NCBI RefSeq assembly: GCF_947507565.1
Contig: NC_089179.1
Span: 926,681-990,680 of the forward strand
DNA from: Oscarella lobularis
Taxonomy: Eukaryota
DNA: 64,000 bases
Direction: 5' to 3'
In this document: one piece after another, positions 1-28,968 of the stretch
How the letters are laid out: every line of letters starts with the position of its first letter
How positions within the stretch are numbered: position 1 is the first letter of the stretch
Position numbers and translations under genes: made by a program
Notes under the pieces: generated by a model
What the model was told of the DNA's origin: nothing
What the model saw: the letters and a program-made list of their open reading frames with translations, nothing else
Databases searched by the model: none

Positions 1-1232
1 ACCAAGTCAAGATCTTTGCTATGTCAAAACTGATAAAGGTAGGACTAGTGACTGATTTCTATTCTGTAATTATGGCGGGGTGCAGGCGAATGGACGAAAT
101 GTCAGAATGAATTGCTGCCATTAATTGCGACTCGGTATGGCCCAGCGAGGCGAGTGGCCGAGGCTCCTTTCATGATAGTACTGGGTAATGCTAAGGAAAC
201 GAAATTCTCACGCTAATCTTCATCGACCGCAGGAAATTCGAAGTCTTCCACCCTTCTTAACTACGCCGTATACATAGCCAATTTATTTCATCTCACGTCC
301 GACACTCGGACTCAGATCGTGAAGCATACAGAAGTTGACAACAGTACCCTAGGTCTGTAGATAATAGCGCTGTTTGAAAGGCTACCGCATTGTCGTCTAC
401 GCAGAGAATTTCAACTTGATTCTTCTGGGGCAGCCGGAGGAAAATCCCCTTCTGGCGAGGCTTTTAGGGGAGCTGCCAATAAAGTACGGCGAAGGAGGTA
501 TCTACGACCGCGTACGTCACACGAATATTCCTCAAAGGTAAATTCGTCTCCAGTTTTCGAATTTGGTCATTGCAAGTTCGGACGCAATTCCGATTCCGTG
601 GGATTATCTGCACTGGCTATTCACGCGTCGCGCAGAATGGCCTTGATTCTGACAGGAAATACTCCCCAGGCAATAAACGACGTGGTTTACCTGGCCACCC
701 CAACGATACCTCCAATGACCCGTTCACCCGTTAGTCTTACACTTTCTCGCACATTAGTGAACACATGGGAGTTCTCTTTGATTATAGTTTTCGAATCTCG
801 TTCCCGACTTCTTATTCATTGGGCCCGATTTTCAGTCGACTGGCTCTGGGTCCTACCTTTGTGCTGGCTACTGGGATCACGTTTGGACAAGTCGTGGTTA
901 CCAGGTGGCATTGAATCGGCAAAGCATGTCGTGTCCTTGTTAGCTCGTTTAACCAAATAGTTACCCTGTTCTAATCTACAGCACGAGTTAGTCTAGTGTA
1001 CTATCCGTTTTCGTGAAGGCCGGCTAAGTCTGGGCCGAGTCCGTGAGCTTGCTGCATGTGCTGTGCATACCTAATCAGAGAGAAGAGCACATATCGTCAA
1101 GTGCTGGCGACTGCGAGGTCTACGCACTTGTTCATCCAATCGTGAGCGACATCTCTTTTGCAAGCAGAAGTTGTAGCCAATTTATAGAGTACCTACAAAA
1201 ACGGTTCTATAATGAAATGATTGGTTTCTTAT

Positions 1233-4200
1233 TTAAAAGGCAACTGACGCCGAAGACAAGCAAATGCAGAAAAACCGTGTAGAAGAATATGAACAGGCGG
1301 GCAAATTTGCTGGACAGAATGAAACGCCCCTATAAAAGACAAAAAGCGAAAAGTAAAGGCGACGAATTGCGCCGCTTCGCGGTAAGACCATGTTAAGCGT
1401 TGCTTTTTCCGGTCCACTCAGGTCTACTATTCGTCTTTCTCGTTCCTGCAGCAGATCAATCTTGAGGTCAGTCGATATGTACCACACTACTTAGAATACC
1501 AACGCACTCGTCTGCTAAAGACCGAAAAGGGATCCATTCTTGCTTCGTACTCTCCCGAGTACTTGCTGATCGTTTCGTCGTGGCGAGTGCCACCGGTCTA
1601 TAAACACCGCGTCTGCTACTTGAAAAATCAATAGGAAACAGCGTATATGTATACTGATGATTGGTAGCCTTGAAGAAATTTGATCTTTTCGTAGAGCTTA
1701 ACGTTGTCCGAGCGAAGCGAATCGACTTCTGTTTTCAAACTTGCAACGAGCTGCTCTTTGTGCTTGTTCGTCTGTGACGCGCGGCCGCGTGAAAGCGAGC
1801 GGAAAACAAGAGACATCGGCGAAACTCACCGCTTCGAGCTCCAAATTCCTCATTCGGAATCGTTCCCTTTGGCTTGAAATGATAGGAAGCAACGACGCCT
1901 CTGTCGTCGTAGCCGACGAATCAACTGCGAGATTGAAATATTCTACGTCAAGACATACATCATCCAATCGATTGTGTCTTCTCTCGCCTTCGCTGACTGC
2001 ATCTTGAGCTGCCTTCGCCAGCACTGTGACGCCAGTGTCTCGGCAATCTTCTCCCTATCGGGATCGACGCTGTAGATATGCCGGCCACATGCAAGCTGTT
2101 CCTACCTCTCCTTCGGTGCGTGCGGGAAGAAAATTGCGAACGTTTGCCAAATCCGACTCCAGCTGCTGAATCAGTGTCGTCTGTTTATCTCTGTCTTCTT
2201 TTGATTCGGACAGCTCGGATTGGAGAGCAGCAGCTTGGGCTTGGCATAAGCTCTGAGAAGCAATCAAGGTGAGAAAATAGCAAATAGCTTACTTTGTAGC
2301 TCTGTTTGGGAGAGTCGAAGTTTTGTGTTCTCAGACTGAAGTTCTGGAGCGGAAATTGATTTTAGAAAGTGGAAAAATTGAACGAGCGTACTTCTATTCT
2401 TTGCTATCAGCAACGCTTCAAGAGTCTTGGCTTTTCCCTACAACAATTGCGTGATCGATGTTGCCACTTGCCAGTACAAAGCTCCTACTTCTTTTTCTTC
2501 TTCTTCAGATGACGAGAACTCCATAGACTTCAATATGCTGATGAACAAAAAAAACGTGAGCACTTTCCGACAGTATTGTCGGTAAAGCAACCTTAATTCT
2601 CTTTTCATTTCTTCGTAGTCTTGCTGCTCAACAAGCTTTCCTTCCTAGTCAAAAAAAGAGTCGCAAAGCCTCTAAAACAGTCCGATTTTCAACACACCAG
2701 GCTCTCTATGACGGCAGCCTGGGCGCCGAGTCTTTCTTCCAACACAACAACCTAAGAAACGTCAGTATTTCGGCACAAGGTAAAAAGAAACGACTTACTT
2801 TATTAGCCTCGCCGTCTTTTAATTTCGTCATAGCTCCTTGCAAACGCTGGACATCAGAGACAAGTTGGGCTATCTGCAGAAACGATTGCGACAAAAGTAA
2901 GTTCAACTCTCTAACGGCTCACCTCGCGTTCTTTGGCGGCAAGCTCAAGCTCCATGGTCGTTTGCGACATGCTGGCCATGCTCGTTTGCATGCTCGAACT
3001 CATCAACGCTTCCTCGCGTTGCGCCTGCTGATCCATTTTGACGCTCTCCTGAAGCAACTCGAGTTCTTTTTCGGCAACCAGCGCCCTATGATTCGACCGC
3101 TCGAGATCGGTTATGACAATAGAGACCTCGGACGTCCTGGACAACGCAAGAGACTAAGTAAGTATACGAGCTATGTATGGTTCACCGCTCACTTTGCAGC
3201 TAGATCTTCGTCGTATTTCGATTTGAGGTCGAGCACTTCCGACTGGGCGGCGTTGAGAGCTGAATGGGAAAAGAAGCCGGTGTCGATCCATCGCGTTTCT
3301 TCCGAGTTGGCTTACCCGTTTGCAAGGCAACGATCCTCTGCTCTGCCTCGCCCAACTTTGTGGCAACGGCGACTTGCGTCTCCTGCAAAGCCCTGTAAGT
3401 GCAAAATTGACAAGAAACGATGATTGGATAAAACTCTTTCCGCGCCTTTCAGCAGCCGTGTGTTCAAGTTGAAGCTCTTTCACTTTTTCTTGCACCAGAG
3501 CCTTTCCGGGAATTCTTTCATCAAGTATGACAATCTACCTGTTTTGGTCGCATTACCGCCATATCTTCTTCTCGCCTGTCCTCCATCTCTCTAATCTTTT
3601 CTTTTAGACAACCAATAGTAACCTCTACACAAGGGCTACGATGGACGTGTGCAAGTGACGTTGTCATATGAGCTTGCCTTGATTCTTCACTTGGGCAAAC
3701 TCGCTATTGTACTCAGCAAGAGTCTCTTTCAGCTTCTTATTCTCAATCTCAAAAGCCTGCAGCAATCATCTCTCTCTCACAAACACAATAAACGATACTG
3801 GGTCAACCTGTAAAGAATCTATCCTCCTTTGTTGGGACGCCACCTGCTCCAATGCAGCAGTGGGATCTGCCATGAACATCAGAAAAACAAGCACAAGCAC
3901 GCACAGTCCAGACTTCACCTGGAGCATCAGCAACTTTTCTGTATATATTCAAAAATGCTGTCTCGGCCGCTTTACTTCGCCGTGACAACGAGTCAACCTA
4001 CATCAGCTTGCCCCACTCAAAAAACGACAGTACCACGCCCCCCAACGAACTTCTGCCTGAAAACTTTTCAGCAATGGTGCCACCTGCTTTCTCGAATCCT
4101 GTTTTAATCCGATTAATTCATTAATTTTTTTCTACTGTAGGTGCGCGCGCATTGAGGCACACCTCAGGCACTGTTTTCTTGAACTCTCGACTCAATTCGA

Positions 4201-4372
4201 CGAGGCGTCGGCGCGACGTTTCCGATTCGTCTTGACGCGTCGCTATTTCGCTTGCCGTCACGTCGAGGTCATTCTGACGAGAAACACGGCACTGAAAAGG
4301 TTTTCTCGTCTATTTGTTCCTCACCTGCAGACGAGGCAAGTCGAAAACTCTCCAGTAATCGAGCACGGACAT
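1233..4372 (-). CDS. CASP: Golgin CASP (CUX1 alternatively spliced product homologue; coiled-coil Golgi tether with C-terminal TM), multi-exon
   Basis: First exon MSVLDYWRVFDLPRLQ followed by a gt donor matches the CASP N-terminus (FQYWKRFDLQQLQ). Further exons contain AAETAFLNIYRKV, IVITDLERSNHRALVAEKE, LLPIISSQRERFRMRNLELEA, and SLKTEVDSLRSDNVKLYEKIKFLQGYQ (the CASP C-terminal signature KLYEKIKFLQSY). After that come PEKATLNM and a hydrophobic tail. All exons are on the minus strand, separated by ~50-70 bp GT-AG introns. Confidence 0.8.
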
Positions 4373-5546
4373 CCTTTTGTTGTGTATTCTAACGTACGCT
4401 AAAGGTAAATATGCTGCCAAATCGATTGAACGCGTTCAAAGCGAAAGGTCTGCCCTTCAAGGAGGCAGTCAGACAGGTAGAAGCATATTTTTAATTCTTG
4501 CGTTGGAGCTCTAAACGCTAGAGATGCTTGGAACGCGTTCGAAGGAGTCGAGACAGGAGGATGAGTCAAAATCGTGATCTTACTAGCGACGATAATGTGA
4601 TTCAATTGATCAGAGAAGAAGCGCTACAGCTGAAAGAAGAAATAATGGAAGAAGAGGTAGAGTAGAAAATTAAATAGCTCCTTCTGTATCAATACTAATT
4701 ATAAGAATTTTTTTCAAGGGTATTGGACATTCATTTACTGATTGGCCTTGTGACGATATTGATAGACTGATATGTAGTGACGTAGCACTGCAGGCAGAAA
4801 TACAGGAAGCAGGCACGCTCTCTAACGAACGATATGACTCTTATAAAGAGTGGCTTACTGTGTAGCTGTTCTTCTGTTGGAGGAGGAGCTGACTCGTAGT
4901 TCAGTAGAAGAAGAAGAGGCGGCGGCACGTTTAAATGTAGTAGAAAAAGATTTGGTGGTTTGTCCACTGTGCAGAACGTATGCCCTAATAAGGAACGAAG
5001 GATCTTGATTGCTTATGTACTTTGCCTGCAACACGTAGGAACTATCTTTATCAAGTAGGATCAGTGATAAAATGCTCGTGCGGGGTTGCCATAGACACAG
5101 AGGTACAGAAGAAAAACGTTTAGCTAATACTATGTATTCTATTTCTATTCATTTTGTAGCAGGACTGTATTGGACTGTCGTACGTTAGGACTCAGCTTGA
5201 AGACCTCCACAGCGAACATAGGTAACTCCCGAGCACGGGTGTACACGCTGCTATCCTAATCTTCTTATGTCTTAGCTCTCAGTGTCTGCTTCAGCTAGAG
5301 TTTTCTTTGCAAACATTGCCAAATATGTCTAGAATTCATCTTTTGGTGAAGTGCAATGTGAGCACGGTCTCTTTTCTTCTCTACGCTAATCTTTCTCTTT
5401 TAGAATTGCAACTTTGTAGGAATTGTTGTCTAAGCTGAATGGATTTGTGGGAATTTATTGTAGACCATAGCAGGGAGACCATAGATTACTCCATAGCTCC
5501 ATAGATTATTTATAGTAGGCCTAGCGCACGTGGTCCTTTTGGAGAC

Positions 5547-7397
5547 ATGGCGTGCAGTCGCGTCTGTGGCGTAGTTTCCTCCGCCCTGTTGGACTACAAC
5601 ACGTCGAAGCTCGTGCACATTCGTAATCAAAAGATCGGACTCATCTACAGACTCGTGCAACTGGGAGTCATCGTCTACATCATCGGGTAGACAGTAAGGC
5701 CCCGGCCCCGGTCCGGCAAAGACTATTCGTTCTCTTGATCCTGTGTCAACGCCAGATACGTCATCGTTATAAAAAAAGGCTACCAAGAGACGGACACCGT
5801 CCTAAGTTCGGTGACGGCGAAAATGAAAGGAATGGCGCTGGTGAAAGGAAATCATACGGATGCGATTTGGGACGTTGCCGACTACGTTGTGCCTCCTCAA
5901 GTAGGAAAAAAAATGACAGGTTTACCTTTCTGATACGTTATGCACACTGCGTCTCTAGCAAACGGACTCCGTCTTCGTCACTACAAATGCCATTATAACG
6001 GAAAATCAGACATACGGTGTTTGTCCTGAGGTGAACCTACTTGTAGTGGGGCTCTACTGTACAGTAGGTGACGGACTCGCTTTTCCAGGATTCATATGTT
6101 GCTGCCGGTTCCTGTGACTTTGACGCTGATTGCCCAGCTGACACTCCAGTTCGAAATGGAAACGGTAGAAGTTTCACGACGTTTGCAACTTTCTTTATCT
6201 CTTTTTCTTCAGGTTGGAGAAACGGCACGTGTGATAATTCGACTCACACGTGTTTTATCTATGCTTGGTGTCCCACGGAGACTGATGTGGGCCCGTCAAC
6301 GTCTGTACTTTATAGCACAATGCTATTCTTTCCTGTATCGACTTGTTTTTAGGCCTCTGCTTGGAGATGATCCAAAGAATTTTACTCTTTTTATCAAGAA
6401 TAACGTTCAGTTTGAAAAATTTCATTTTCACAAGTAGCCATATTAATTTGTCAAGTAGATTATGTAGACGGAAGTTTTTAGGAGCAACGTACTGGAAGCT
6501 ACAAGCGGCGTAAACATATCGTTTCTTCGAAACTGCACATATAATGCCTCGGATCCTCAATTTCAATATTGTCCCATCTTTCGACTTGGAACCATTTTAG
6601 ATGAAGCAAACGAAGACTACGAACCGATAGCCCTTAAGGCATGCTACGTGACGCAAATAGAAATTCAAAAAAAATCGATAAATGTGTGCTAGGGTGGCAT
6701 CATGGGCATTTTCATCACGTGGAATTGTAACTTGGACTACTCCACCTCTCACTGTGAACCTAAATACAAATTCAAAAGGTGCTCTTAGATTAGAGGACTT
6801 AGTGTTTAGGAACGAGTCTCGTTTCTGCGTAGGCTTGATAATGCAAAAGCTGCCATTGCACCGGGCTACAGTTTCCGGTATCATCTCTGATTTTCTGTTG
6901 TCAATCATAATTAGTTTGATTCAGCTACCCAATCTATTATTTTGTGAACGGGGTAAAGTATCGACAGCTTGTCAAAGCGTATGGCATACGATTTCAGATA
7001 CTTGTCAGTGGGACGGTAAGTAATCTCTAGGAGGAACAAACGCATGAAGCGAGGAGATGGGATTCTTTTAGGCTGGAAGATTTAGCGTCGTTCCACTATT
7101 TCTAAACATTGGCTCTGGAATAGCTCTTTTGGGAATAGTGAGCGAGATTTCCTGCGGAAACGTTATCATACTATTATATCTGTTCATTGACAGAGTACGG
7201 TGTTGTGTGATCTGCTTGTTCTGTACGTCGTAAAGAGAAGGAAATACTACAAGGACAACAAGTACGAAACAATCGAAGACGAAGAAGCACTGGTGAGTGT
7301 CTCTTGTTGCTTAGCTTCGTAAGAAAAAGAGTTTGTTTGCGAGTAGTTTGGGCCCAAAGAAAAGAACTTGCAAGATTATAAGAAGGTTGAAGAATGA
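5547..7397 (+). CDS. P2X purinoceptor (ATP-gated cation channel), paralog A, multi-exon
   Basis: N-terminus MACSRVCGVVSSALLDYNTSKLVHIRNQKIGLIYRLVQLGVIVYIIG (P2X TM1 region). Ectodomain exons: EKGYQETD-like, SVTTKMKGVA, GSCDFDADCPADTPVRNGNG, CFIYAWCPTE, NFTLFIKNNVQFEKFHF, GGIMGIFITWNCNLDY, YGIRFQILVSG. TM2: AGRFSVVPLFLNIGSGIALLGI. Tail: YYKDNKYETIEDEEAL. Probable last exon FGPKEKNLQDYKKVEE*. Confidence 0.85.
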
Positions 7398-7575
7398 CGC
7401 AATTTTTGTGCAAGTAAGCGCTGGTCTCTGTGGCGCTAATCTCGTTATTATTTAGCCTTTGTAGTTCTCCCGCAGATACATTACGTATTGACAGTGCGTA
7501 ATACGGGAAAGAATTTAGCCCACATTGTGCACTCGCGCTACACTTTCGCAGTTCGGCGGTGCAATCACAAATCGA

Positions 7576-9430
7576 ATGGCGTGTCGTCGTTGCTGCGAGT
7601 CCACGTCGGGCGCTCTCTTCGAATACGATACGTCCAAATTGATTCACATACGCAATCAGAAAATCGGCTTCATTTACCGACTCGTACAGCTCGTCGTCAT
7701 CGTCTACATCATCGGGTTAGAACGAGAGCAAGAGCAAGAGAGAGCCTTCGAACGATAAGACCGACCTCGTGCCGGGGCAGATATGTCATCGTTCTAGAGA
7801 AAGGCTATCAGGAAACGGACACCGTGCTCAGTTCAGTGACAACGAAGATGAAAGGGGTCGCTCTCGTGCAAGAAGAAGGTCAAGAAACTCCGAACGTGTG
7901 GGACGTCGCCGACTACGTCGTGCCGCCCGAAGTAGGAGAGAAATTGGGTAGTATTTAATTGGAATCTAGCGGTGTCCGCGCGACGATAGCAAACCGACGC
8001 CGTTTTTGTCACGACGAATGCTCTCGTAACGAGGAATCAGACTCGCGGTGTCTGTCCTGAGGTAATCGCAAAGATCTGCCTACTATGGATGGGTGGTTGG
8101 GTGGTTGTATCTAATAGAATCTTTAGGATTACAATGTGGCTGCTGGTCGTTGTACAGTTGATTCTGATTGTCCGGCAGATACTCCAGTTCCAAATGGGAA
8201 TGGTTCGACTCTGGCTACTTGTATCTGCGCTTTCTCATCGTTGTTTTCTTCTAAGGTTGGAGAACTGGCACTTGTGATCTAACAACAGAGACTTGTCTTG
8301 TTTATGCTTGGTGCCCAGTGGAAAATGATAGTAACAGGTTGGAGCAATCTCGTGCAAAAGACGCGTAAGTTGTATTCGATTTTTTTTCTAGTGATACTGT
8401 TCCATCGCTTGGTAACTATCCATTGAATTTTACTCTCTTGATTAAGAACAACATCCAGTTTGAGAAATTCGGTTTCTATAAGTAGGTGATTGTCTGGTGA
8501 AACTTTTTAGTTTTGACGATTCTTCCCTTCCGTGCGTACAGAAGCAACATTCTAAATGCCACCAATAGCACGTTCTTGCAAAACTGCACATATGACAGTC
8601 ACGATCCGCTTCGACGATTTTGTCCAATATTTCGGCTCGATACGATGCTCGAAGAGGCAAAAGTGGACTACAATGATATCGCCCTAAAAGTAGGCTTGTA
8701 GAATCATAAACCATCATTGAAATGGCATGTTAGGGAGGAGTCATGGGCATTTTCATCAAGTGGGAATGCAATTTGGACTACTCTTCATCCAACTGTCGTC
8801 CGCAGTACGAGTTCAAAAGGTTATTTATACTAGTATACTTGCATGCTCAGTAATCAAAAAAGCCATTGCAGACTTGACAACGCAAATTCCTCTGTTGCAC
8901 CAGGCTACAGTTTTCGGTTGGTTAATTAAACGGTAGCTGATCTTCGTAACGTGCCTTCCTCAGGCACGCAATAAACTATGTGGTTGATGGAGTAATGCAT
9001 CGTCAGCTAACTAAAGCGTACGGAATACGATTCCAAATACTTGTTAGTGGAGAGGTAGGCGATTGATTGTTTGCTTTGTGTGCCCACTACAGTGTGTTTA
9101 CTAGGCAGGAAAATTTAGCGTTGTACCGCTCTTTCTCAACATCGGTTCAGGCATAGCTCTGTTGGGAATTGTAAGGGAGGAAGGGGACGTAAGGAGTGAT
9201 TCACTTTCGTTTTCTATTTATCTAGAGCACTGTGCTGTGCGATCTGCTTGTCTTGTATGTCGTAAAGCGAAGACAGTACTACAGGGACAACAAGTACCAG
9301 ATGATTGAAGACGAAGAGTCTCTGGTACGCTAATCTTTTGCTTACACGTGCATTGCGTTGTCATCGTATCTTGCGCACGTGTAGCTTGGCTTTGTCGAAA
9401 TCAAAGCTAGCAAGAAAGATGAAGACTGAC
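7576..9430 (+). CDS. P2X purinoceptor, paralog B (tandem duplicate of paralog A), multi-exon
   Basis: MACRRCCESTSGALFEYDTSKLIHIRNQKIGFIYRLVQLVVIVYIIG; VLEKGYQETDTVLSSVTTKMKGVALV..TPNVWDVADYVVPPE; CIVDSDCPADTPVPNGNG; GGVMGIFIKWECNLDY; YGIRFQILVSGE; AGKFSVVPLFLNIGSGIALLGI; YYRDNKYQMIEDEESL. Probable last exon LGFVEIKASKKDED*. Same exon order as paralog A. Confidence 0.85.
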
Positions 9431-9641
9431 GTTGCAGTCTCTGATGACCCTTTTTTTGTACTCTTTCTCCTATGCAATAGTGCCCAGCAGCGGGAGCAGC
9501 TTCCGTACGAAAAATGAAAAAAGAAGAATTGCTATCACGTATGTAATAAGTAATCCTATCTTCCCCTTACACGTACATCTCATCAAGGCTACAACAAAAA
9601 AAACGTAGAAATGCACGTAATGTACTATCACCGTTTTCTTT

Positions 9642-10710
9642 CTAATACAAAACAGCATCGTCGTCTTCGGCGAATCGTCGCAGCGCCATCTTGCTGTTTG
9701 GCGGCATCGTCGACATGGTCGCCAATCGTCGTCCGTGCGCGTTGTGCGCCGCCGACGCTCGATCGATGTCGCGGGAGCGCTCCTCGAACAGCATCAAATT
9801 CAACGACTCCTCATAGATTTTCGTCTCGGGAAATTCGATTTTCGTCTGCTTCTTCTCCGTCGCGTAAACAATTGATTCGCAACAAATCTCAGCGACTTTT
9901 TTCCCGTGCCCATAGAATGTCCAGCAGCAGATTTCGGACGTGCCGACAACGTCTTTGACGAACATGACGCGACTGGCAAACTTGACGCAGAGCCGATCGA
10001 ATAGCTCAATGTTTTTTAACAAATTTTCGTCGGAGTTGCTACGGCAAGAATTTACCACAACTATTCGCACATTCACACAGTATCAATACCTCGTATAGGA
10101 GTACTTGTTATTGCTTCGGTTGTACATGAGACGAACGACAGGCTACGTCACAAAGCGTGTAAGCCAATATTTATTTATTAAGTATTCACGATTTTTTCTA
10201 CTTTGCGAGAATTTTCCAGTATCTTCTGGAGTTGACCTGATGCTGTGAGCACGGGAACGTACGTCATCGGCGGACACGGATCGCGCAGCATCATCAATCT
10301 CGTTTGAATCTGCCTTTCAAGATCTTCAATGAGGTAATACTTTGCCTCGGCGAGCAATTCTTCCAAATCTTGTTGCGCCTCGGGCAGCGGCGTCGAACTG
10401 TCTCGAAAATAGTTCAAAATCTTCGCGAAGTGCTTGCCGCACCGATCGATGAGAACCCATCCTTGAGAAAGGGGTAAGATTTTTTTGACGTCACTGTTAG
10501 CGCACGCCGCGGAGACTCGCCTTCGGAATCGAGCAGCACGTCCATTCGACCGCTGAACATGGCCTTGAGCATGCTGTCGTGCTTCGTGAGCGTTCCCGTC
10601 GTCGTGTAGAAGAGCGTGCCGCCGATGTTGAGACGGACGTACTCGCCGTGCGTCGACGAGTAGCGAACGAGTTGAGCCGACGAGACGGCTGGAGGCGGCA
10701 GGTCGGACAT
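9642..10710 (-). CDS. BTB/POZ KCTD protein of the BACURD family (KCTD10/KCTD13/TNFAIP1-like Cul3 substrate adaptor)
   Basis: BTB region: [40 protein letters not shown], then [42 protein letters not shown]-terminal block: [86 protein letters not shown]. This is near-identical in pattern to KCTD10 ([50 protein letters not shown]). The apparent stop after ..KIVNT at 10178 lies in an intron. Confidence 0.8.
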
Positions 10711-10885
10711 TTCGTTCTCCGCTCCTCTCAGGTACGAGAGCGCGTCTGTGGCTATATTTAGAAGTTGTGCCCCTGGTTGATACTCCTAATGACGTAACGT
10801 AATTCACGTGCTCGACGGGGCGCGCCCCAAACAACACATTTCTTTGCATTTCGTTAGTTGTGCGATGCGAATCTCTACAACGTGT

Positions 10886-11104
10886 CTAGGCTTTTTTGTT
10901 TCTTGCTCGCTGCATGGCTCTGTCTCTGTTGAGCTTTTGCTGAAGCGTTTTGTAGACTGTCCAGCAGTTGCCGCAGGCTAGTATGAGAAACAAAATTCCC
11001 GTGGTGAACAACTGTAGGGGCAGAAAAAGTTTAGCTAATTTCTTTATGAAAGCATCACTTGCCTCCCACTGTCCTTTGGGTTTTCCACTGTTCCACAGAG
11101 CCAA
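10886..11104 (-). CDS. Small ORF with a C-terminal hydrophobic helix (possible terminal exon of the neighbouring coiled-coil membrane protein, or an independent small TM protein)
   Basis: 72-aa ORF ..LAKLFLPLQLFTTGILFLILACGNCWTVYKTLQQKL..; no recognisable family. Weak resemblance to the last TM of WRB/GET1 (GGVGITCWILVCNKV). Confidence 0.2.
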   Translation of the reverse strand: MALWNSGKPKGQWEASDAFIKKLAKLFLPLQLFTTGILFLILACGNCWTVYKTLQQKLNRDRAMQRARNKKA

Positions 11105-11631
11105 GAGTTGATAGGCGTTATAGAATTGCCAAGACTAGATATCGCAATTATAAATGAAACTGCCGAGATACTGATCGTTTGATTACATAGCCAAATATGA
11201 GTAAAGGAAGAAGAAATGTTAGTTCAGCCCACGTTTTTACTCTTGGCCCATCTAAAAACCGAATTTCGTTTATATCCTCGTTTTTGAGCATGCATTTATA
11301 CCTCTAGTGATGTCAAGTTCATGAACTTTGCCTAGCGTTACCAGTCGATACAAGCTACCTCTTTGATAATAGTATTGGACGTACTGAACAAAATCTGCGC
11401 GGAAATTAGATATAAGGAGCGACAGAGAAAACGCACTCACTCAGATACAATGAATAGGCCATCAAGTTAGTTCTGAACGAATAGTAGTTGGAACCAGCAT
11501 GCCTAGTAGACAATGTACTGTGACATCAATCCGCTGTGTATCTGAGTTACCACATCAACAGGCAGCATGAAACTACTATGGAGAGGTAGTGATGAAGCAC
11601 CCACCATCTGCGAATTCTGTTGAGAAATTTT

Positions 11632-12403
11632 AATTAAGATATTCGCTGCTAGTGTGCGGTTTTGCATTTTTGCACCTCGACCCGTTTTGTCTGAGAATTG
11701 TTTCTCGTATAGTAAGCGTGCAGTAGTACCAGACCAAGAGAAACTGTAGTGCAGCATCAGTCAATCTGCAATGGGGAAAATCCCAATACATTCCTATATA
11801 CAGCTGATATGTTTACCTATTGTGAAACACAAAAAGATTGGCCAGCGACAGAACGCCGGCTACAACCGTAACAAGAAGCTTAAATTTTTCATATTGCTGT
11901 TTATAAGAAGACCTAAACATAAAGTAGCTCTTTAAGCAAATCCTTTGCAAGGAAGAGGCTCGATAATTTTAATTGCTGTGTGTGGAAGGGGAGGAGGGAT
12001 TACCTACCGATCTTTCTTTGTCAGTAGCGTCACGTCCAAGTTGCCGAGTGTCAACAGTAAGAACCAACTATAGAAAGGTGCCCTACATTGTTCTATCTGA
12101 TATTTTTTTCATTTACTGGTTTGCTCTGGGTAGAGTGGCTTCGATTTCCTCGATCTTCCGCTTTCTATCGCTATACTGCTCGAGACTCGCATCGCTGTAT
12201 TTTTTAGCTCTATCATTTGTCGTCGTTGTCTTCGATTGGCTTGCTTACCTTCGCAAGGACTCGAGAGTCGCCTTGTGCTGCTTCGCCCTTTTACGACATT
12301 CGTCCTGAAGATCTCTGACCTCTTCTAATTTTCCCTGGATGCGTCGATACGTCTCCTGGAGGCTCGCGAACTCCGTTTCGGCTTTCTGCCACGTTTCGGT
12401 CAT
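11632..12403 (-). CDS. Small coiled-coil protein with predicted TM helix (unassigned family)
   Basis: Exon 1: [51 protein letters not shown], then a gtaagc donor. Exon 2: [27 protein letters not shown]. Its TAA stop overlaps a CAG|GTAAAT donor. A possible downstream exon encodes [27 protein letters not shown] (TM). Splicing and protein family are uncertain. Confidence 0.4.
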
Positions 12404-12685
12404 CGTGCTATCTCGCTAGCGCGCGTTAGTCAAAAAACTGTACTGAAATTGCGCTGAAATTCTGCAAAAATGAACTCAAACGACTTCAAAGACTCGACGT
12501 TAGCAGCAGGAGGAATCCCCAAGAGAGCCGGCGAACCGAAAAGCCGATTAGAAACATATCTACGACGACGTGCAATTGAACAATTCGCATTGCTCATTCG
12601 GCGAGACCTAACACTCGTCCAAAGTGTTGACAATTGACGCAGAAAACCCCCGAATCAAATCGAGACGAAGGCAAACTCCTTGCGC

Positions 12686-15600
12686 CATGCCCGCTCGTCC
12701 CGCAGACCCAGGAGACGTCGCAAACGCGCGAAAAGACAACGAATCGCAAAAACAGTCGATCGGCAACGGAATCGCCGCCGATTCAATGACGACGACGTCG
12801 ATCGGCGGCGTAGTCAACTTGTCGTGCCACGGCGCCAACGTCGGACTGACGCTCGATCGTCGAACGTTCAAAATCACGTCGATCGAGCCGTCGAGCGCGG
12901 CGGGAAAGAGCGATCTCGTTCACGTCGGCGACGTCGTCTTACGCGTCAACGGTCACTGCACGGCGGCGCTCGAATACGAACGCGTCGTCGATCTGCTCGC
13001 GAACGTCGCCGCCGGCAGAATCGATCTCAAAATTATGCGAAACGTGCCGAAGGCGGAGCCAGCGACGTCGCTCGAGTATAATATCCCGCCACTTTGGGTC
13101 GAGAGCGATCATCGGTGCGGTGGCCCTCTAGCGGAGAAGGTCGACCGATTTTTTTTCTGTTTTCTTAGTCACAATCACGGCGAGATGAACGGTCAGGCAC
13201 CGTCGGCGTCCGGAGGAGGCGGAGGCGGCGGGAGAATGCCTCGACGAGCGATGAGCTTGGCTAACGACGGGCGACCGGGAAGTCCGTTGGCGCGGCGGAG
13301 CTATGTTCAGTTGAAAAATTGGTCTACTGAGAAACGGATGACCGATACGCTTCACAGTCGAGTCAAATCGGTGAGTAGGTGGAGTTCTCGTTCTCGATGG
13401 CTTTTCTCTCTTCGAGGAAAGGAGGGCGAGGCAGGTGTCGCGAGAAGGCAGGCGCGCTTACATCGGTTCTAGTAGAGAGTCCGGTTGACTCTATAAATGG
13501 TCTTTATTTTTCTAAGGTCTAGCTCATGCATACGTATGTCGAACAAAGCCTGGTGGGGCTTTTCTAGGCACCGGTGGAGCATTCGTGCCCGGTTTTTGAC
13601 CCGTTCTTTTTGTAACTGGCTGATCCTCCGTTTTTCCTCCTCCGTGCCCTCTCCGTGCCTCTTTCGCGTATCGTGTTTCATCTGCCTTTTTCACCTCTCC
13701 AAACGAGATCGCTCGAGACTTTTTCGCACACGCCTCGCAATGTTGTGTCTCGTTCGCGGTTTCTGCAATAAATGCGCTCGTTCGATTGACTCCCTGACAT
13801 CGGTGGCGCGCTCTTGTTTGGGGCGTTCTTCAGTCAATAAAGCCGGAATTCAAGCGAACCAGTTGCGTTGGGTTCTAGACTTTCACAACGTCGCTACACG
13901 ATACACTAGGGGCGTAGACTTTCCTCAGGGAGCGCGTACGCATGTTTTCTTTTCAAGAATGCACACGTTTTGCAAGAATAGTTCACCAACAAGTCGTATA
14001 GCTCCGCGACTCGCGCACCTGCTCGCTTTCTTCCATGCGGTGGTGGCGTTTTTTATCTCAAGTCAAAATGCCGCCCACCGCGGAAATGGAGGGGGGAGGG
14101 CCGGCCCGTCGCGCGATCTCATCCCTCTTCCCTCCTGCAGGTTCACGATACGTGGTGCAATCCGAATCATTGCCAAGGATCGATCATGTATCCGCTCGGC
14201 GCCGAAGTGAAACGCTTGCCGGGCGAATCTCGTTCGAAGGATGACGTCATCGATCAGGCGGAGGCATTCCTGAGCGAATATTTTCAATCGCTAAAAAAGT
14301 AGATTATTTTTCGTTCTCACTTCCTTGCTATTTTTCGTAAATCGATATTCAGACGAAGCGACAGTCAGAGCACGAAGAAGAAATTGGAGGAAATGGAAGC
14401 GAAGCGAATGCGCGAAGTCGTCGCCGAAGTCGAATTGAAAGGCACGTACGAATTAGACGAAAAAGAATTGGTGTTCGGCGCCAAACTTGCGTGGAGAAAC
14501 TCGCCGCGATGCATCGGACGCATTCAGTGGAACAAGCTTCAGGTACCGGCCGCGCGAACGTGACTGGGAGGCGGGGCGGGGCGGGGCGACGACGACGTCG
14601 ATGTTTTTTAGGTATTCGACTGTCGACACATTTCGAGTGGCGAGGAAATGGAACAGGCGATACGTCATCACATCAAATTTGCAACGAATGGAGGAAACAT
14701 CAGGTAGGAGGAGTATGCAAATTGGCGTGTCTTCTCGCCCAATCCCCGTGGCGGCGGCGATGTTTTCTTCCCAAGGTCGGCTATCACCGTGTTTCCTCAG
14801 CGAACGAGCAAACGAGACGACTTCCGTATATGGAGTCCCCAATACTTCCGCTACGCCGGCTACAAAATGGAGGACGGCACGATATTGGGCGACCCGGCAA
14901 CGGTCGACTTCACCGAAGTGAGTGCGCAACGAACGTGTTCACTGAGCAAAAATGCGACGTGTTTTATATAGATAGTCATCGGTTTGGGATGGAAGCCGCC
15001 GGAGGAGAAGACCATGTTCGATTTGATGCCCATTGTCATTCAAGCGCCGAGAGAAAAACCTCGTCTCGTCGACGTATCCGATCTCATTCTCGAAGTCGAG
15101 GTCTGGCATCCGCAGTAAGTCCATTCGATAAGGGGAGGGGAAAAGAAAAAAAAGTTGTGAATTCTAGGTATCCGTTTATGAAAGATTTGGGCCTAAAATG
15201 GTACGGATTGCCCGCTGTTTCGAACATGATGTTCGACGTCGGCGGCCTCGAGTTTCCCGCCTCTCCATTCAACGGATGGTGAGTCCCACTCGCCGCAGAG
15301 AGTTTCATTGAGATTCACGTTCCTTCTCAAAGGTACATGGCCCCCGAGGTGGCGGCGCGCAACTTCGGCGACACGTATCGTTTCAACATGCTCGAACCGG
15401 TTGCCAAGGGCATGGGACTCGATACGAGTTCGCTGTCGACTTTGTGGAAAGACAAGGCGCTCGTCGAGCTCAACGTTGCCGTGCTGCACAGCTTTCAGGT
15501 GAGAGATCGGTCCGGACGGGAGGAAACCGTATACATCATTGAAATATTTCCTAGGAAGCTAAAGTGACGATTAATGATCACCATTCGGCGGCCGCTTCCT

Positions 15601-18600
15601 TTATGCAACATTTGGAGAAAGAGGTGTGGATCAATATTATCTATTGATTTGATGATATATGACTCTTCATCTTAGGTATCTCTTCGCGGAGGTTGTCCTG
15701 CTGATTGGGTGTGGATTGTTCCTCCTTTGTCAGGGAGTGCGACTCCGGTATTTCATCAGGTCAGCAACCCGGAAGAGATGTCTAATTAATTATTTATTTT
15801 TTATTGTATACAAGGAAATGCTCAATTACAAGATGAAACCGTCTTTCGAATACCAGGTTTGCTAGATAACGAATCGGCGTCCTCCTTATTACGCGCGACG
15901 CGCCTCTATAGGAGGCCGCTTGGCTCACTCAACGCTCGATCGACAAACAGGCGAAGAAGCAGAAGAAGAGGGGCATCAAGACGCTCGTCAGCGCGGCGCG
16001 AGTCGTCATGATGTCGATGCAGCTCTTTCAGCACCAGCTCATGAAACGAGTGCGCGTGACGATACTCTACGCGACGGAAACGGGCAAATCCGAGCGCTAC
16101 GCAAAGGACGTCGCCAGTCTGTTCAGTCACGCCTTCGCCGTAAAGGTAGAATAAAAAATCGTCGAGAAACGTTCTATTTTGATGCGTTTTTTCTTTTTTC
16201 TTTTTTTTTTCGAGGTCGTCTGCATGGAAGACTACACGTTCTCTGATATCGAATACGAGCAACTACTGCTGACCGTTACGAGCACGTTTGGCAACGGCGA
16301 TCCGCCCGACAACGGCGAGGTGTTCGGTCGCGAGCTCTACGAAATGCGTCATCCGCCGCCGCTCGAGGAGGAGAACAAGAACAAGCGAAAAATCAGCAGC
16401 ATACACTTGGCCATGTCGAGCAAACACTATCAAGGAAATCGGGACGATTCGCAGCCGTTGGCCAACGTTCGGTGAGTTATAATAATAATAAGACCGCGCC
16501 GTTGATAAATACTCGGCGACCTTTCGGCTAGATTTTCTGTCTTTGGGCTGGGCTCGCGCGCCTATCCCAACTTCTGCGCCTTTGCGCGATCCGTCGATCG
16601 CTTGCTCGGCGAACTCGGCGCCGAGCGCGTCTACGAGAAAGGCGAAGGCGACGAGCTGTGCGGGCAGGAGGAGTCGTTTCGCAAATGGGTCACCGGATGC
16701 TACGAGGCCGCCTGCAAGACGTTCTTCTTGGACACGAATCTGAAGGACTATTCGGACGCTTTGTCGACGTCGTCGAAGGAATGGCAACCGGATAAGTTTC
16801 GCGTGTCCGTTCAGACGGGCAAAGTTCCTGTTACCGATCTGTGCAAGAGTACGCCGGCGCGTGCGAGAGAGATTTAGATTGATTTACTTTTTCTGCGTAG
16901 ATCTTTCGGATCTTCACAAGAAGAACGTCTATCCGTGTCGCATGCTGTCGCGCACCAATCTCCAGAATGAGGAATCGCCGTACGTCGCCGGCTGGATAGA
17001 TAGGCGGCGGTCTCTTTGTGACGTTCGTCGTTTTTTTCTTTGTTTCAGACGTTCGACTATCTTGGTCAAAGTCGACATTCAGAACGAGCCCATGCTCGTG
17101 CACGAACCCGGCGATCATTTGGCTATCTTTCCGCAAAACCAACCATCGCTCGTGAATCAGCTCATCAAGCATTTGATTGACGCAACGCCGCCAGACGAAC
17201 CTGTGCTCGTGGAGTACAACAAAGGAAAGAAAGGTGAAAGCAGAGGGGGGGGGGGGGGGGGGGGGGGGGGATGAAACAATTTTTAATTCTAAATTCGTTT
17301 TAACGGCAGGCGACGACTGGAAACCTTTTGAGAGGCTTCCACCTGGCTGCACTCTCCGCCAGGCACTCCAGCAGTATTTGGATATTACTACGCCTCCAGC
17401 TCCTCAGTTCCTTGCCATTCTTGCTACACTGGTACGCCGGCGAGGGAGAGGGGGGAAAGGAGCTCTAAAAGCACCCCTGTTCTTCTTTTAGACGGCCGAT
17501 CCAAAAGAGAAAGAGAAACTGTTAGAGCTTTCTAAAGTCGGTGTCTGGAGAGCCACGCTTTTGCAGCGATAGTTAAATGTTTTTCTTTAGGGAACAACCG
17601 CTTATGAGGACTGGAAATTTGACAAGTGTCCGAACATGGTTGAAGTTCTCGAGGAGTTTTCCTCTCTCGAAGTGCCCACTTCTCTCTTTTTGGCCAAGTT
17701 GCCCTTGCTTCAGTCGGTAAGTTCGATCGATCGATCGAGAGTCTCGTCGCAACGACGATTATGTTTGCGTAGAGATACTATTCTATTTCGTCTTCGAGAG
17801 AATACGTTGGCGGAGAAATTCACTGCACTGTTGCCGTCGTCTCGTTTCGAACTCAGGGAGGAAGTGGTTCGCTCCACCACGGCGTCTGCTCCTCGTGGCT
17901 GAATCGAATTACGAAAAATACAATAGTGCCCTGCTTCGTGCGAAAGTATAGCAAAAGTGGAAATCGTTGGCGACACACGTAAAAGTAAAAGTCTCATCGT
18001 CATTTTTTTTTCAGAGCGAGCTCGTTCTATTTGCCGGAATCAAAGAAATCGCCCGTACTCATGGTTGGTCCCGGCACCGGCATCGCTCCTTTCCGTAGTT
18101 TCTGGCAGCAACGCAAAATCGAAATGGAGCTCAAATTTACCGTTCAATCGAGTGGCAAACTTGATGCCATAGCGGAGGATCAAGAGGGTCCCATGTGGGG
18201 CGACATGGCCCTGTTTTTCGGCTGTCGTCATCCCAAATTGGATCACATCTACAAGAAGGACATGGAAGAGCTCGTCAACGAAGGCGTTCTGGCCAAAGTG
18301 GGCTGCGCCTACTCGAGAGACCCCAATCAGCCGAAAGTAAGACGAGCTATCTTATTGCGAAGTTAATCTCCATACATTGGCTACGTCTTTTAGCAATACG
18401 TGCAGGATCAGTTGAAGCAGGAGGGCGAGTATATCATGCGGAAACTGCGAAAGGAGAACGGGCACTTTTACGTGTGCGGCGACGTTTCCATGGCTGCCGA
18501 CGTGGGCAAGACGCTCGAGGTGCATTAGAGTTCGCAATTGTTTGATCAATTTCCAACGACGTTACGTTGCTCTTTTCCCTAGGTCATATTCGAGCAGCAC

Positions 18601-19048
18601 GGCGGAATGTCGTCGACTGAAGCGAGAGCGACCGTCGAAAAGATGAGAGTAAGATTCGCGTGTGTCCGCTTTTGTTGCTTCAATTTGATTTGATCCTGGT
18701 TGCTATTGTCTACCTTTCGCTTCTTTTGTTTGTCGCGAACCCCGCTCTCCTTTGTTTGCTTTGTCCGTATAAAGCGTGCGAACCTTTCTAAATGCATACC
18801 TGTTCGTTTGCGCTAAGGCTATGGGACACTACCACGAAGACATCTTCGGCGTGACGCTGAGAACAGCAGAAGTGACCGATCGTGTCCGAAACGCGGCAAA
18901 GAAGTACGTAAACAGCGGTCTTTGTATAGTAGCGGTTTGTCACGAAACGAACGTAGGGCATGGAAAATTATCGCAGATGCTTCAGGGCAAGAAGAAGTGG
19001 TACGACTATTCGACTTCTATCTTTTGTCATCTACCAAAAATTGTCTAG
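12686..19048 (+). CDS. NOS: Nitric oxide synthase, nNOS-like (PDZ + oxygenase + CaM-binding + FMN with autoinhibitory insert + FAD/NADPH reductase), about 20 exons
   Basis: PDZ: [68 protein letters not shown] (nNOS KNWETD..TDTLH). Zn site [13 protein letters not shown]. Heme Cys: [41 protein letters not shown]; [25 protein letters not shown]; [40 protein letters not shown]. CaM site [23 protein letters not shown]: [31 protein letters not shown]. Autoinhibitory insert [21 protein letters not shown].., then [23 protein letters not shown]: [82 protein letters not shown]. The 3' end lies somewhere in 18905-19056 and is uncertain. Confidence 0.9.
13372..14140 (+). other. Unusually long (~770 bp) intron between the NOS PDZ exons and the oxygenase exons; candidate internal regulatory or alternative-promoter region
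   Basis: Exon ..HSRVKS|gtgagt at ~13371. Next coding exon (T)[18 protein letters not shown] follows ..ctcctgcag at ~14140. All other introns in the window are 45-70 bp. The ORFs inside this interval are low-complexity or in alternative frames. Confidence 0.3.
17244..17272. repeat. Poly-G homopolymer tract (~29 nt) in a NOS intron (G-quadruplex-capable, or an assembly artefact)
   Basis: agcagag + ~29 g residues + atgaaac directly after exon ..YNKGKKGE. Confidence 0.6.
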
Positions 19049-19540
19049 TCTATGCCGGAGATGAAGCCCATGATGAAGACGTCGAAAAAGAAGCTAATGG
19101 GGGTAGGTTAAGAACTCGGAAATGTTCTAGTCTCTTCATTCGGAGTGCCTCAATGTCTCGCAGCTTGAGCGCGGACACAGCGGCACGCGTCCGAAACTCC
19201 CGGTCCGCTCGACTTCAAAAGACGTTCCGGACGAGACAAAAAATAGCGAATCGGAGCCGCCGTCGTCAGAGTACGGACGCGGTAGCGTCGAAGGCGACTC
19301 CTTCATTGTTATTTTCGTTTGTAGGTCAAATGGCAGTGACGGTAAACGAAGCAAGCCTCGTCCGCCGCTGCAGAGAAGAGAGAAGACGCTCAAAGAAGAG
19401 CCCGAAGACCTGTCTTCTCAGAGCTGAAAAAGGATTTCGAGTTCTCTTTCCATGTGCTGCCTAGCTATTTCTCTATGTTTCTTGTTTTTGTCTCAAGGCT
19501 ACGAATTTCAGCTGTGCGTGTGCTCTGTGCAAACTCTGTG

Positions 19541-20765
<1,225 letters not shown>

Positions 20766-28230: not shown

Positions 28231-28968
28231 TCATCCTGTATGTCGTGCACCTGGCAAATATTTATGAGGTATCTGTCTCTCAACGTAGATATTTCCTACT
28301 TGTCTCTGCAAAACGTAGAGCATTCGAGCTGATCTAGCTGCTTGCTCTTCAGCCTTTACAACTGCTCGAACACTGGCTGCATTTTGATGCTGATCAAACA
28401 GTGTTTCCCTGAATCGATGTCTCGTAGGAGGAGACGGCATCAAGACGCCGCCACTTCCTGGCGTTTTCTTTATTTTCTTGAGCTGATCGTTCAACTGCCG
28501 ACGCAATCTATATATCTCAATAACCTCTTTCTCATCTCGAGTCAATGTCTCTTTGTCTTTGGCAGCATATTGACGACGTGTCACCGTTGAACCAGACACA
28601 GGTGTCTCTAAAGGAAACCTTGGCTGACGTCTTGCTGTTCGAAGCAGCACGGAAGAGCGAGGAGGAGAAGGAGGCGGTGATGACTGTTGATGTGATTGAA
28701 TAGGAAGGGAATGATCACTGATTGAAGGTGGAGCCACTAGGACACCTCTGCGTACGTCTCGGCGAGCAAGAATGATTGCCTGTTGAAGGCGTTTTGATAT
28801 TGGTCTCGTAGACTGAGGTGAGTCGTCGCTTTGGTGAGTTGATGTCTCCTTGATTTGTTCAATTATTATTGGACCGGGTTTTGCTGGTTTGAATGTTGGC
28901 CGACGACGGTCAAAGGTAGAATTCAAGTTAAAATGAAGTTGATTTCGCAAATATTTGCTCTGTTCCAT
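28231..28968 (-). CDS. Hypothetical Ser/Pro-rich protein with C-terminal coiled-coil (unassigned)
   Basis: 245-aa ORF; ..SSPPPSPPRSS..; EVIEIYRLRRQLNDQLKKIKK; AVVKAEEQAARSARMLYVLQRQ. Confidence 0.35.
   Translation of the reverse strand: MEQSKYLRNQLHFNLNSTFDRRRPTFKPAKPGPIIIEQIKETSTHQSDDSPQSTRPISKRLQQAIILARRDVRRGVLVAPPSISDHSLPIQSHQQSSPPPSPPRSSVLLRTARRQPRFPLETPVSGSTVTRRQYAAKDKETLTRDEKEVIEIYRLRRQLNDQLKKIKKTPGSGGVLMPSPPTRHRFRETLFDQHQNAASVRAVVKAEEQAARSARMLYVLQRQVGNIYVERQIPHKYLPGARHTG

Follow-up and report, generated by a model that had tools for sequence, protein, structure and literature searches.

A PDZ-bearing nitric oxide synthase gene with constitutive-type control elements and an ancient long 5' intron in the sponge Oscarella lobularis

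The NOS locus of O. lobularis

The window analysed here is a stretch of 64,000 nucleotides from the genome of Oscarella lobularis, a homoscleromorph sponge and thus an animal without nerves (RefSeq assembly GCF_947507565.1, contig NC_089179.1, positions 926,681 to 990,680 of the forward strand). The region is eukaryotic in character, with very short GT-AG introns, and it contains a complete nitric oxide synthase (NOS) gene on the plus strand. The coding sequence comprises 4272 nt including the stop, distributed over 29 coding exons separated by 28 GT-AG introns, and its spliced translation of 1423 aa is identical, residue for residue, to RefSeq XP_065830378.1. The gene, with its 29-exon structure, is therefore already annotated, under the name 'nitric oxide synthase, inducible-like [Oscarella lobularis]'. 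It occupies 6.7 kb, as compared with more than 240 kb for human NOS1 (PMC7235643). The encoded protein combines an N-terminal PDZ domain with the full animal NOS machinery and with two controls of constitutive NOSs, namely an autoinhibitory insert in the flavin mononucleotide (FMN) domain and a long C-terminal tail. The second intron, which lies between the PDZ-encoding exons and the catalytic exons, is an ancient, 5'-proximal long intron of NOS genes that is found in sponge, starfish and fish alike.

A preliminary description of this locus, made from the sequence, had placed the gene between 12686 and 19048 and the beginning of the long intron at 13372. These boundaries need correction. The start codon begins at 12687, our model opens the intron at 13371, and the end at 19048 results from read-through of intron 25 into a false stop, beyond which four more exons carry the gene to 19427, in agreement with RefSeq. 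The account it gave of the architecture holds up well: Pfam and motif searches recover every module that it named in the order known from neuronal NOS (nNOS), that is, PDZ, zinc-thiolate, heme cysteine, calmodulin (CaM) site, autoinhibitory insert and the flavin adenine dinucleotide (FAD)/NADPH domains, and the motifs that it quoted, CNPNHC, PRCIGRIQW and the CaM-site sequence, are all present (Table 1). It was also right that an intron of about 770 bp splits the PDZ and linker exons from the catalytic exons and exceeds the local norm more than 10-fold. Apart from the 3' boundary the observation is real, but it is ordinary.

For comparison within the species, the window was set against two hifiasm contigs of O. 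lobularis (L003 and L004), which are identical across intron 2, so that effectively two alleles are represented. The exons bear the mark of selection, with 4 segregating sites in 4272 nt (0.0009 per site) and indels of 3 nt only, against 0.020 segregating sites per site in the short introns. The PDZ domain and the N-terminal hook of the oxygenase lie in a single uninterrupted open reading frame (ORF) of 282 codons (12624-13472), whether intron 1 is spliced or not. In the other haplotype, this intron measures 55 bp owing to a 1-nt indel; read-through would shift the frame there, and the intron must therefore be spliced. The haplotypes further differ by one in-frame GGA/GGC codon in the poly-Gly tract of exon 2 (13226).

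Beyond the species, four relatives carry an Oscarella-type PDZ domain, linker and hook at 38-53% identity and share the same short-intron style: L001 (JGI 3300046527), L002 (ENA ERZ25072854), L005 (one of L005 to L007, Logan SRR31358904-6) and L008 (with L009, ENA ERZ21742408 and Logan ERR11641160). All four probably belong to other homoscleromorph sponges. Among the NOSs compared, that of L002 stands nearest to the O. lobularis protein (56.5% identity, with no other exceeding 47%). Intron 1 of O. lobularis is absent from all four. The join between exons 2 and 3, for which the preliminary description had advised a check by protein alignment, has canonical splice sites and compatible phases; it matches the phase-0 junctions of Asterias and fish NOS genes, and in L001 the two sides of the junction are contiguous in genomic DNA.

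Catalytic domains and calcium-control elements

All catalytic domains scored above their Pfam cut-offs: NO_synthase (PF02898) with 518.9 bits, flavodoxin (PF00258) with 120.3 bits, FAD_binding_1 (PF00667) with 204.4 bits and NAD_binding_1 (PF00175) with 57.4 bits, the last three in the customary FMN, FAD, NADPH order. The hook LKNW..TDTLH, the motif C216-NPNH-C221 of the Zn(Cys)4 dimer site and the heme-ligating Cys316, which falls within a WRN..RC.GRIQW pattern, align with those of starfish, squirrel, cnidarian and limpet NOSs.

The region comprising the CaM-binding helix and the FMN domain aligns end to end with the human and rat nNOS structures (8T1J and 1TLL), whereas the alignment with the FMN domain of human inducible NOS (iNOS; 3HR4) breaks into two stretches that leave 39 residues unmatched. 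These residues are the autoinhibitory insert of about 40 aa recognized in the preliminary description. The insert (35-39 aa) is contiguous with that of nNOS in 1TLL and 8T1J and has the same EMRHP..EE.K start. The CaM helix (aa 629-655) aligns with nNOS residues 726-750, and its 1-5-8-14 pattern reads L/A/V/L in an ungapped alignment inspected by eye. Because the insert and the CaM/FMN region match nNOS and not iNOS, the enzyme is of the constitutive type, with predicted CaM gating, and 'inducible-like' is a misnomer for XP_065830378.1. The C-terminal tail extends 119 aa beyond HEDIFG, whereas that of nNOS extends about 33 aa beyond the same position.

Overall, the protein has the domain order of vertebrate NOS1 (nNOS-alpha) and is about 50% identical to it over 86% of its length, with a homologous insert and CaM helix. 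Since NOS1, NOS2 and NOS3 are paralogues that originated inside the vertebrate lineage, the sponge gene is co-orthologous to each of them and not to NOS1 alone.

Table 1. Positions of the elements of the O. lobularis NOS gene in the 64,000-nucleotide window
Feature	Position	Strand	Basis or remark
Whole NOS coding region	12687..19427	+	translation identical to XP_065830378.1
Exon 1	12687-13114	+	contains PDZ
PDZ domain, aa 38-119	12798..13043	+	Pfam, AF2 model, Foldseek
Intron 1, 54 bp, phase 2	13115..13168	+	stop-free and in frame in this haplotype
Exon 2, disordered linker with poly-Gly tract and N-terminal hook LKNW...TDTLH (13311-13355)	13169..13370	+	alignment
Intron 2, 770 bp, phase 0, GTGAGT...CTGCAG	13371..14140	+	gene model
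Zn-thiolate motif C216-NPNH-C221 in exon 3 (14141-14298)	14156..14173	+	alignment with C-x4-C of other NOSs
M226, first in-frame ATG 3' of intron 2	14186..14188	+	ATG scan
NOS oxygenase, aa 243-613, exons 3-13; heme-thiolate Cys316 at 14510-14512	14237..15923	+	PF02898
CaM-binding helix region, aa 629-655 (aa 629-648 = 15969-16028)	15969..16049	+	nNOS alignment
FMN (flavodoxin) domain, aa 660-825	16062..16688	+	PF00258
Autoinhibitory insert inside FMN domain, aa 733-767	16350..16454	+	alignment with 1TLL, 8T1J vs 3HR4
FAD-binding (aa 883-1106) and NADPH-binding (aa 1138-1266) domains	16912..18504	+	PF00667, PF00175
C-terminal tail, 119 aa after HEDIFG	18851..19424	+	gene model
Last four small exons	18957-18999, 19049-19102, 19164-19270, 19325-19427	+	stop at 19425-19427

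The PDZ domain

The N-terminal domain was recognized by the Pfam PDZ profile (PF00595; 27.2 bits against a cut-off of 23.2, aa 58-117). An AlphaFold2 (AF2) model, built with an alignment of 19 PDZ segments, has the canonical beta1-6/alphaA-B topology, with predicted local distance difference test (pLDDT) values of 81-94 over model residues 11-90 (approximately aa 38-119). The segment that follows is predicted to be disordered (pLDDT below 50), and the domain is joined to the catalytic core by a low-complexity linker of about 70 residues, much shorter than the linker of vertebrate NOS1. The best Foldseek matches of the model are all PDZ domains (such as those of MUPP1, MPP7, PALS1 and LNX1), and nNOS was not among the top 50.

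Membership of the nNOS PDZ subfamily was assessed with a profile built from 79 bilaterian NOS PDZ domains, using 968 non-NOS PDZ domains as the null and held-out cnidarian NOS PDZ domains as the positive control; demosponge and placozoan sequences were taken from the supplement of PMC7400543. The null domains scored 26 bits on average and 54 at most, and the held-out cnidarian domains, at 64-103 bits, scored above all 968 of them. The PDZ domain of O. lobularis obtained 29.5-31.8 bits, a score reached by 28-38% of the null, and those of its relatives 34-38 bits. The demosponges Amphimedon (27.7 bits) and Spongilla (30.2 bits) and the placozoans Trichoplax (26.4 bits) and Hoilungia (31.0 bits) likewise fell inside the null, and the O. 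lobularis domain was thus not assigned to the nNOS subfamily by the profile.

The beta-finger by which the PDZ domain of vertebrate NOS1 docks into PSD-95 and syntrophin is missing in Oscarella, as is the subfamily signature: the beta-finger profile gave -3.6 bits, as compared with +26.6 in Acropora, and the GPEGF.THLETTF motif is absent from the alignment. One nNOS feature is shared. The tyrosine at position alphaB1 (Tyr77 in nNOS) is present in O. lobularis and in all four relatives, as in vertebrate NOS1, and occurs in 6.5% of the 968 other PDZ domains. When the PDZ domain alone was used in a whole-library phmmer search, generic multi-PDZ proteins were ranked first rather than NOSs; the repeats of such proteins sum, so this ranking could not settle the orthology of the domain. 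Judged by sequence, the protein is nNOS-like in architecture and its PDZ domain falls outside the nNOS subfamily.

Distribution and origin of PDZ-bearing NOSs

PDZ-bearing NOSs have been reported from Amphimedon, Spongilla, placozoans and corals, together with the question of whether the PDZ form is ancestral (PMC7400543). A later study added Halisarca, found that the NOS of Sycon lacks a PDZ domain and termed PDZ-NOS an animal innovation (PMC10073611). Neither paper mentions Oscarella. The demosponge proteins (Amphimedon queenslandica Aqu2.35699, Spongilla lacustris and Halisarca) have an N-terminal PDZ domain and all NOS domains, as does that of Oscarella (PMC7400543, PMC10073611). Our sequence searches found the same combination in molluscs, echinoderms, amphioxus, cnidarians including corals, and vertebrates. 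After the self-match, the closest named full-length relatives of the O. lobularis protein are the cnidarian PDZ-NOSs of Nematostella and Acropora, which have the same architecture; identity to cnidarian NOSs is 44-52%.

The preliminary description had regarded the PDZ-bearing architecture as a feature of the neuronal type. This does not fit its distribution, since the host is a nerveless sponge and PDZ-NOSs are known from demosponges, placozoans and cnidarians (PMC7400543, PMC10073611). PDZ-NOS in sponges was already published and the O. lobularis gene already annotated; what the gene represents is a PDZ-NOS from Homoscleromorpha. With it, the PDZ-bearing, autoinhibited constitutive-type NOS is known from a third sponge lineage, which lends weight to the idea that this architecture is older than nervous systems.

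The sequences of the PDZ domains vary far more than this shared layout. Among those tested, the nNOS-type PDZ is confined to Cnidaria and Bilateria, where it is unmistakable in cnidarians and in Acropora also includes the beta-finger, and the generic PDZ domains of homoscleromorph, demosponge and placozoan NOSs differ from one group to the next. Demosponges belong to a different sponge class, and their PDZ domains are 26-32% identical to that of Oscarella, have Ser or Pro in place of its alphaB1 Tyr, and scored inside the null (17.5 and 22.1 bits) on an Oscarella-type profile. The limitation of the nNOS-specific PDZ signature to cnidarians and bilaterians, among the sequences tested, places a concrete and testable constraint on how NO signalling came to be wired to synaptic scaffolds.

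This pattern raises the possibility that sponge NOSs acquired their PDZ domain independently of the cnidarian and bilaterian fusion and that the architecture is convergent. The profile scores agree with it, given that Oscarella-clade (30-38 bits), demosponge and placozoan domains all lie inside the null while held-out cnidarians reach 64-103 bits; so do the mutual resemblance of the three sponge and placozoan PDZ types, which is no greater than that of any PDZ pair, the missing beta-finger in Oscarella, and a library search that yields generic multi-PDZ proteins in place of NOSs. However, the PDZ domain occupies the same N-terminal position throughout, and in the Oscarella relatives and in Asterias a single exon, bounded downstream by the same phase-0 intron, encodes the PDZ, linker and hook, a layout that fits what a single ancestral fusion predicts. 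The alphaB1 Tyr is common to Oscarella, nNOS and Acropora, the NOS PDZ domains were judged to 'appear to be homologous' in PMC7400543, and the low scores can be explained adequately by fast divergence along the long branches of sponges and placozoans. We therefore consider an independent fusion in sponges rather unlikely. A single old fusion followed by fast divergence is more economical, because the N-terminal position is shared and the exon from the PDZ to that phase-0 intron is common to the Oscarella relatives and Asterias. On a broader proposition, PDZ-NOS arose more than once: the nNOS-type N-terminus would be an invention of planulozoans, and sponges would have arrived convergently at their own ways of anchoring NO synthesis. 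This appears to us similarly improbable.

One side observation concerns L001 (positions 1-11285), in which the exon encoding PDZ, linker, hook and zinc motif ends at the intron-3 donor, with no further NOS exon within 10 kb. A gene for a 1672-aa URGCP/GVIN-type GTPase lies on the opposite strand beyond it. Such a layout could arise if intron 3 were very long and harboured a nested gene, if the gene were broken, or if the exon formed a PDZ-only gene of its own.

Intron 2 is an old 5' intron that stays long

The 28 introns have a median length of 56 bp, all but two of them falling between 49 and 76 bp; at 770 bp, intron 2 is 13.8 times the median. The only other outlier is intron 24 (18649-18817; 169 bp, about three times the gene norm), for which a whole-window Rfam scan gave no match. 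Intron 2 lies in phase 0, five codons after TDTLH. The NOS gene of Asterias rubens has the same phase-0 junction (TDTLHQKAKI|PLQCSESRC), with an intron of 8,067 bp followed by five of 811-3,369 bp, and fish NOS1 is interrupted at the same phase-0 site (SDVLHHNSSK|MPICTENVC) by an intron of 10,542 bp, one of three 5' introns of 5-11 kb upstream of others of 1-2 kb. The two O. lobularis haplotypes have lengths of 770 and 783 bp. Three of the four relatives have a long intron at this site (317 bp in L002, 1126 bp in L008 and at least 205 bp in L005) among neighbours of about 50-60 bp, while L001 lacks it, as it lacks intron 1. The site thus illustrates clearly how an intron can keep its position and phase from sponge to vertebrate and remain long even where the other introns are of about 55 bp.

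The sequence of the intron is a different matter. Within the species it is the most variable part of the locus, with 0.034 segregating sites per site and seven indels; one badly aligned patch contributes to this count, and even allowing for it the intron is not conserved. Between species, no block was found by blastn at E<=0.01 between intron 2 and the homologous introns of L002, L008 and L005, or among those three, in a comparison of distant relatives (about 70-76% exon identity). A search for conserved non-coding blocks in related species, as proposed in the preliminary description, thus revealed none common to the three relatives that have the intron, and lack of conservation was among the outcomes that it had named as speaking against its reading.

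Sequence turnover of this kind might be expected if a repeat or transposon insertion, or the expansion of a microsatellite, had made the intron long and its length had no function. A (GTG)n microsatellite at 14036 indeed differs by 15 nt between the haplotypes, six other small indels are present, turnover between the relatives is complete, and the GC content of the intron is unlike that of the short introns. However, we found no direct or inverted repeats of 12 nt or more inside the intron and tandem repeats only at a trivial level, no second copy within the 64-kb window, no poly-A tail and no terminal repeats, and no Pfam matches, including to transposase or reverse transcriptase, in the intronic ORFs. 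A repeat insertion, which the preliminary description had named as evidence that would count against a special role of the intron, is therefore not apparent within the window. Moreover, a single insertion would not account for the length that the intron retains in each of the independent lineages, and we regard an origin by repeats as quite unlikely.

Two further candidates for functional content were rejected. A 237-codon ORF with an ATG start (13497-14210) has no Pfam match and is disrupted by frameshifts and stops in the other haplotype; a stop-free run of this length has P ~0.01 by dinucleotide shuffling. An intron-hosted non-coding RNA was not supported by Rfam, which gave no match at the gathering threshold in the whole window and none at E<=1 between 13300 and 14200.

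Other introns of the gene showed peculiarities of their own. Intron 3, of 54 bp in O. lobularis, measures 1.8-2.4 kb in L002 (11186-13628) and L008 (11912-13752), and the long non-coding space near the PDZ/oxygenase boundary thus shifts between neighbouring introns among species. Intron 17 (76 bp) contains a perfect run of 26 G (17245-17270), with a 5-nt haplotype indel just upstream.

An internal promoter in intron 2 is unlikely

Mammalian NOS1 produces PDZ-less isoforms through alternative promoters and splicing (PMC7235643), and the preliminary description had suggested that the same may apply here. A promoter inside intron 2 might yield either of two kinds of isoform. One would be translated from M226 on an unspliced read-in transcript and resemble nNOS-gamma/TnNOS; the other would have a short alternative first exon spliced to 14141 and resemble nNOS-beta. 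In its general form, the proposal draws on the mammalian isoforms, on the fact that intron 2 is the gene's only sizeable non-coding stretch, on the length of the homologous intron wherever it is present, and on a TATAAA at 13493-13498, of which about 0.13 would be expected by chance on a rough estimate from base composition.

In favour of the read-in transcript, M226 lies in a GSIM motif and aligns with the GSIM methionine of mammalian nNOS, the start of truncated nNOS-gamma/TnNOS. However, upstream of exon 3 its reading frame stays open no further than 13982, with no ATG between 13982 and 14140. The ATG of M226, at 14186, lies 3' of both zinc cysteines, C216 and C221, and comes after three out-of-frame ATGs (14035, 14068 and 14086). 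The product would thus lack the hook and the zinc site, and nNOS-gamma itself has been described as without activity (PMC7235643). The ATG scan revealed no downstream start codon for a catalytically complete PDZ-less protein. The second kind of isoform fares no better, as none of the 44 formal ATG...GT first-exon candidates in intron 2 has a strong donor. Furthermore, no part of the locus is more polymorphic than this intron; it has nothing in common with those of L002, L008 and L005 and is absent in L001, and RefSeq lists a single NOS product with no isoform label. With no constraint, no conserved blocks, no in-frame ATG before the zinc cysteines and one RefSeq product, the parallel with mammalian NOS1 finds no support in these tests, and we think it improbable that intron 2 holds an alternative promoter giving a PDZ-less isoform of either kind.

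An argument from CpG islands was also tried and proved uninformative, because the CpG observed/expected ratio exceeds 1 across the whole window. The ratio is about 1.2-1.6 in exons, introns and intergenic DNA, with no depletion of the kind seen in heavily methylated genomes.

Upstream of the gene, a divergent minus-strand ORF (12101-12403) starts at 12403, 283 bp from the NOS ATG. With starts this close together, the two genes share a very compact bidirectional promoter region. Since the NOS promoter is confined to these 283 bp, the presence of regulatory DNA within intron 2 is plausible. Intron 2 is, in our view, most likely an ordinary long 5' intron, possibly with lineage-specific regulatory DNA, and probably not the seat of an internal promoter.

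A model for the enzyme

The whole of the evidence is very probably best explained by a PDZ-bearing, constitutive-type sponge NOS with Ca2+/CaM gating and PDZ tethering, both inferred from homology, whose gene retains an ordinary, ancient long 5' intron. By analogy with known NOSs, the enzyme would act as a homodimer in which electrons pass from NADPH through FAD and FMN to the heme of the partner subunit. Their flow would be gated by Ca2+/CaM, which is expected to displace the autoinhibitory insert. The PDZ domain may tether the enzyme to partner proteins through ordinary binding of C-terminal peptides, and the alphaB1 Tyr, which nNOS also has, suggests that peptides with an acidic residue at position -2 may be preferred. 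The nNOS style of PDZ-PDZ docking would probably not be used, because the beta-finger is not present.

Several points weigh against this explanation. Intron 2 is long in four compact-genome lineages and yet has no conserved sequence, a combination that an ordinary intron does not explain and that would fit a requirement for length or for regulation. At 52.7%, its GC content resembles the exons (54.1%) more than the short introns (44.4%). The RxRxxS phosphorylation site of the constitutive NOS tail is absent, the corresponding position reading RVRNAA with no Ser, where nNOS has RLRSES at this Akt-type site. Lastly, it is from homology that we infer the Ca2+/CaM dependence and the PDZ partners of the O. 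lobularis enzyme.

Neighbouring genes

The NOS gene is closely flanked on its 3' side as well. An exon of a COQ5/UbiE-type methyltransferase (19814-20356, minus strand) lies about 400 bp past the NOS stop; its convergent orientation leaves little 3' intergenic space. On the 5' side, a BTB_2 (KCTD-like) exon (10178-10849, minus strand) is on the same strand as the divergent ORF. A P2X-receptor fragment was found at about 7488-7958 on the plus strand (flagged on the haplotype contig L003 at 5207-5341) and a 'moonraker' (MNR) exon at 28231-28968 on the minus strand.

Further downstream, two tandem plus-strand ORFs of 476 and 450 aa (35647-37077 and 37443-38795) have weak matches to MFS_1, below the Pfam cut-off, and seem intron-poor in an otherwise intron-rich genome. 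A plus-strand ORF of 629 aa (60759-62648), seemingly intronless, contains both LBP/BPI/CETP domains and is a candidate lipid-binding or innate-immunity protein.

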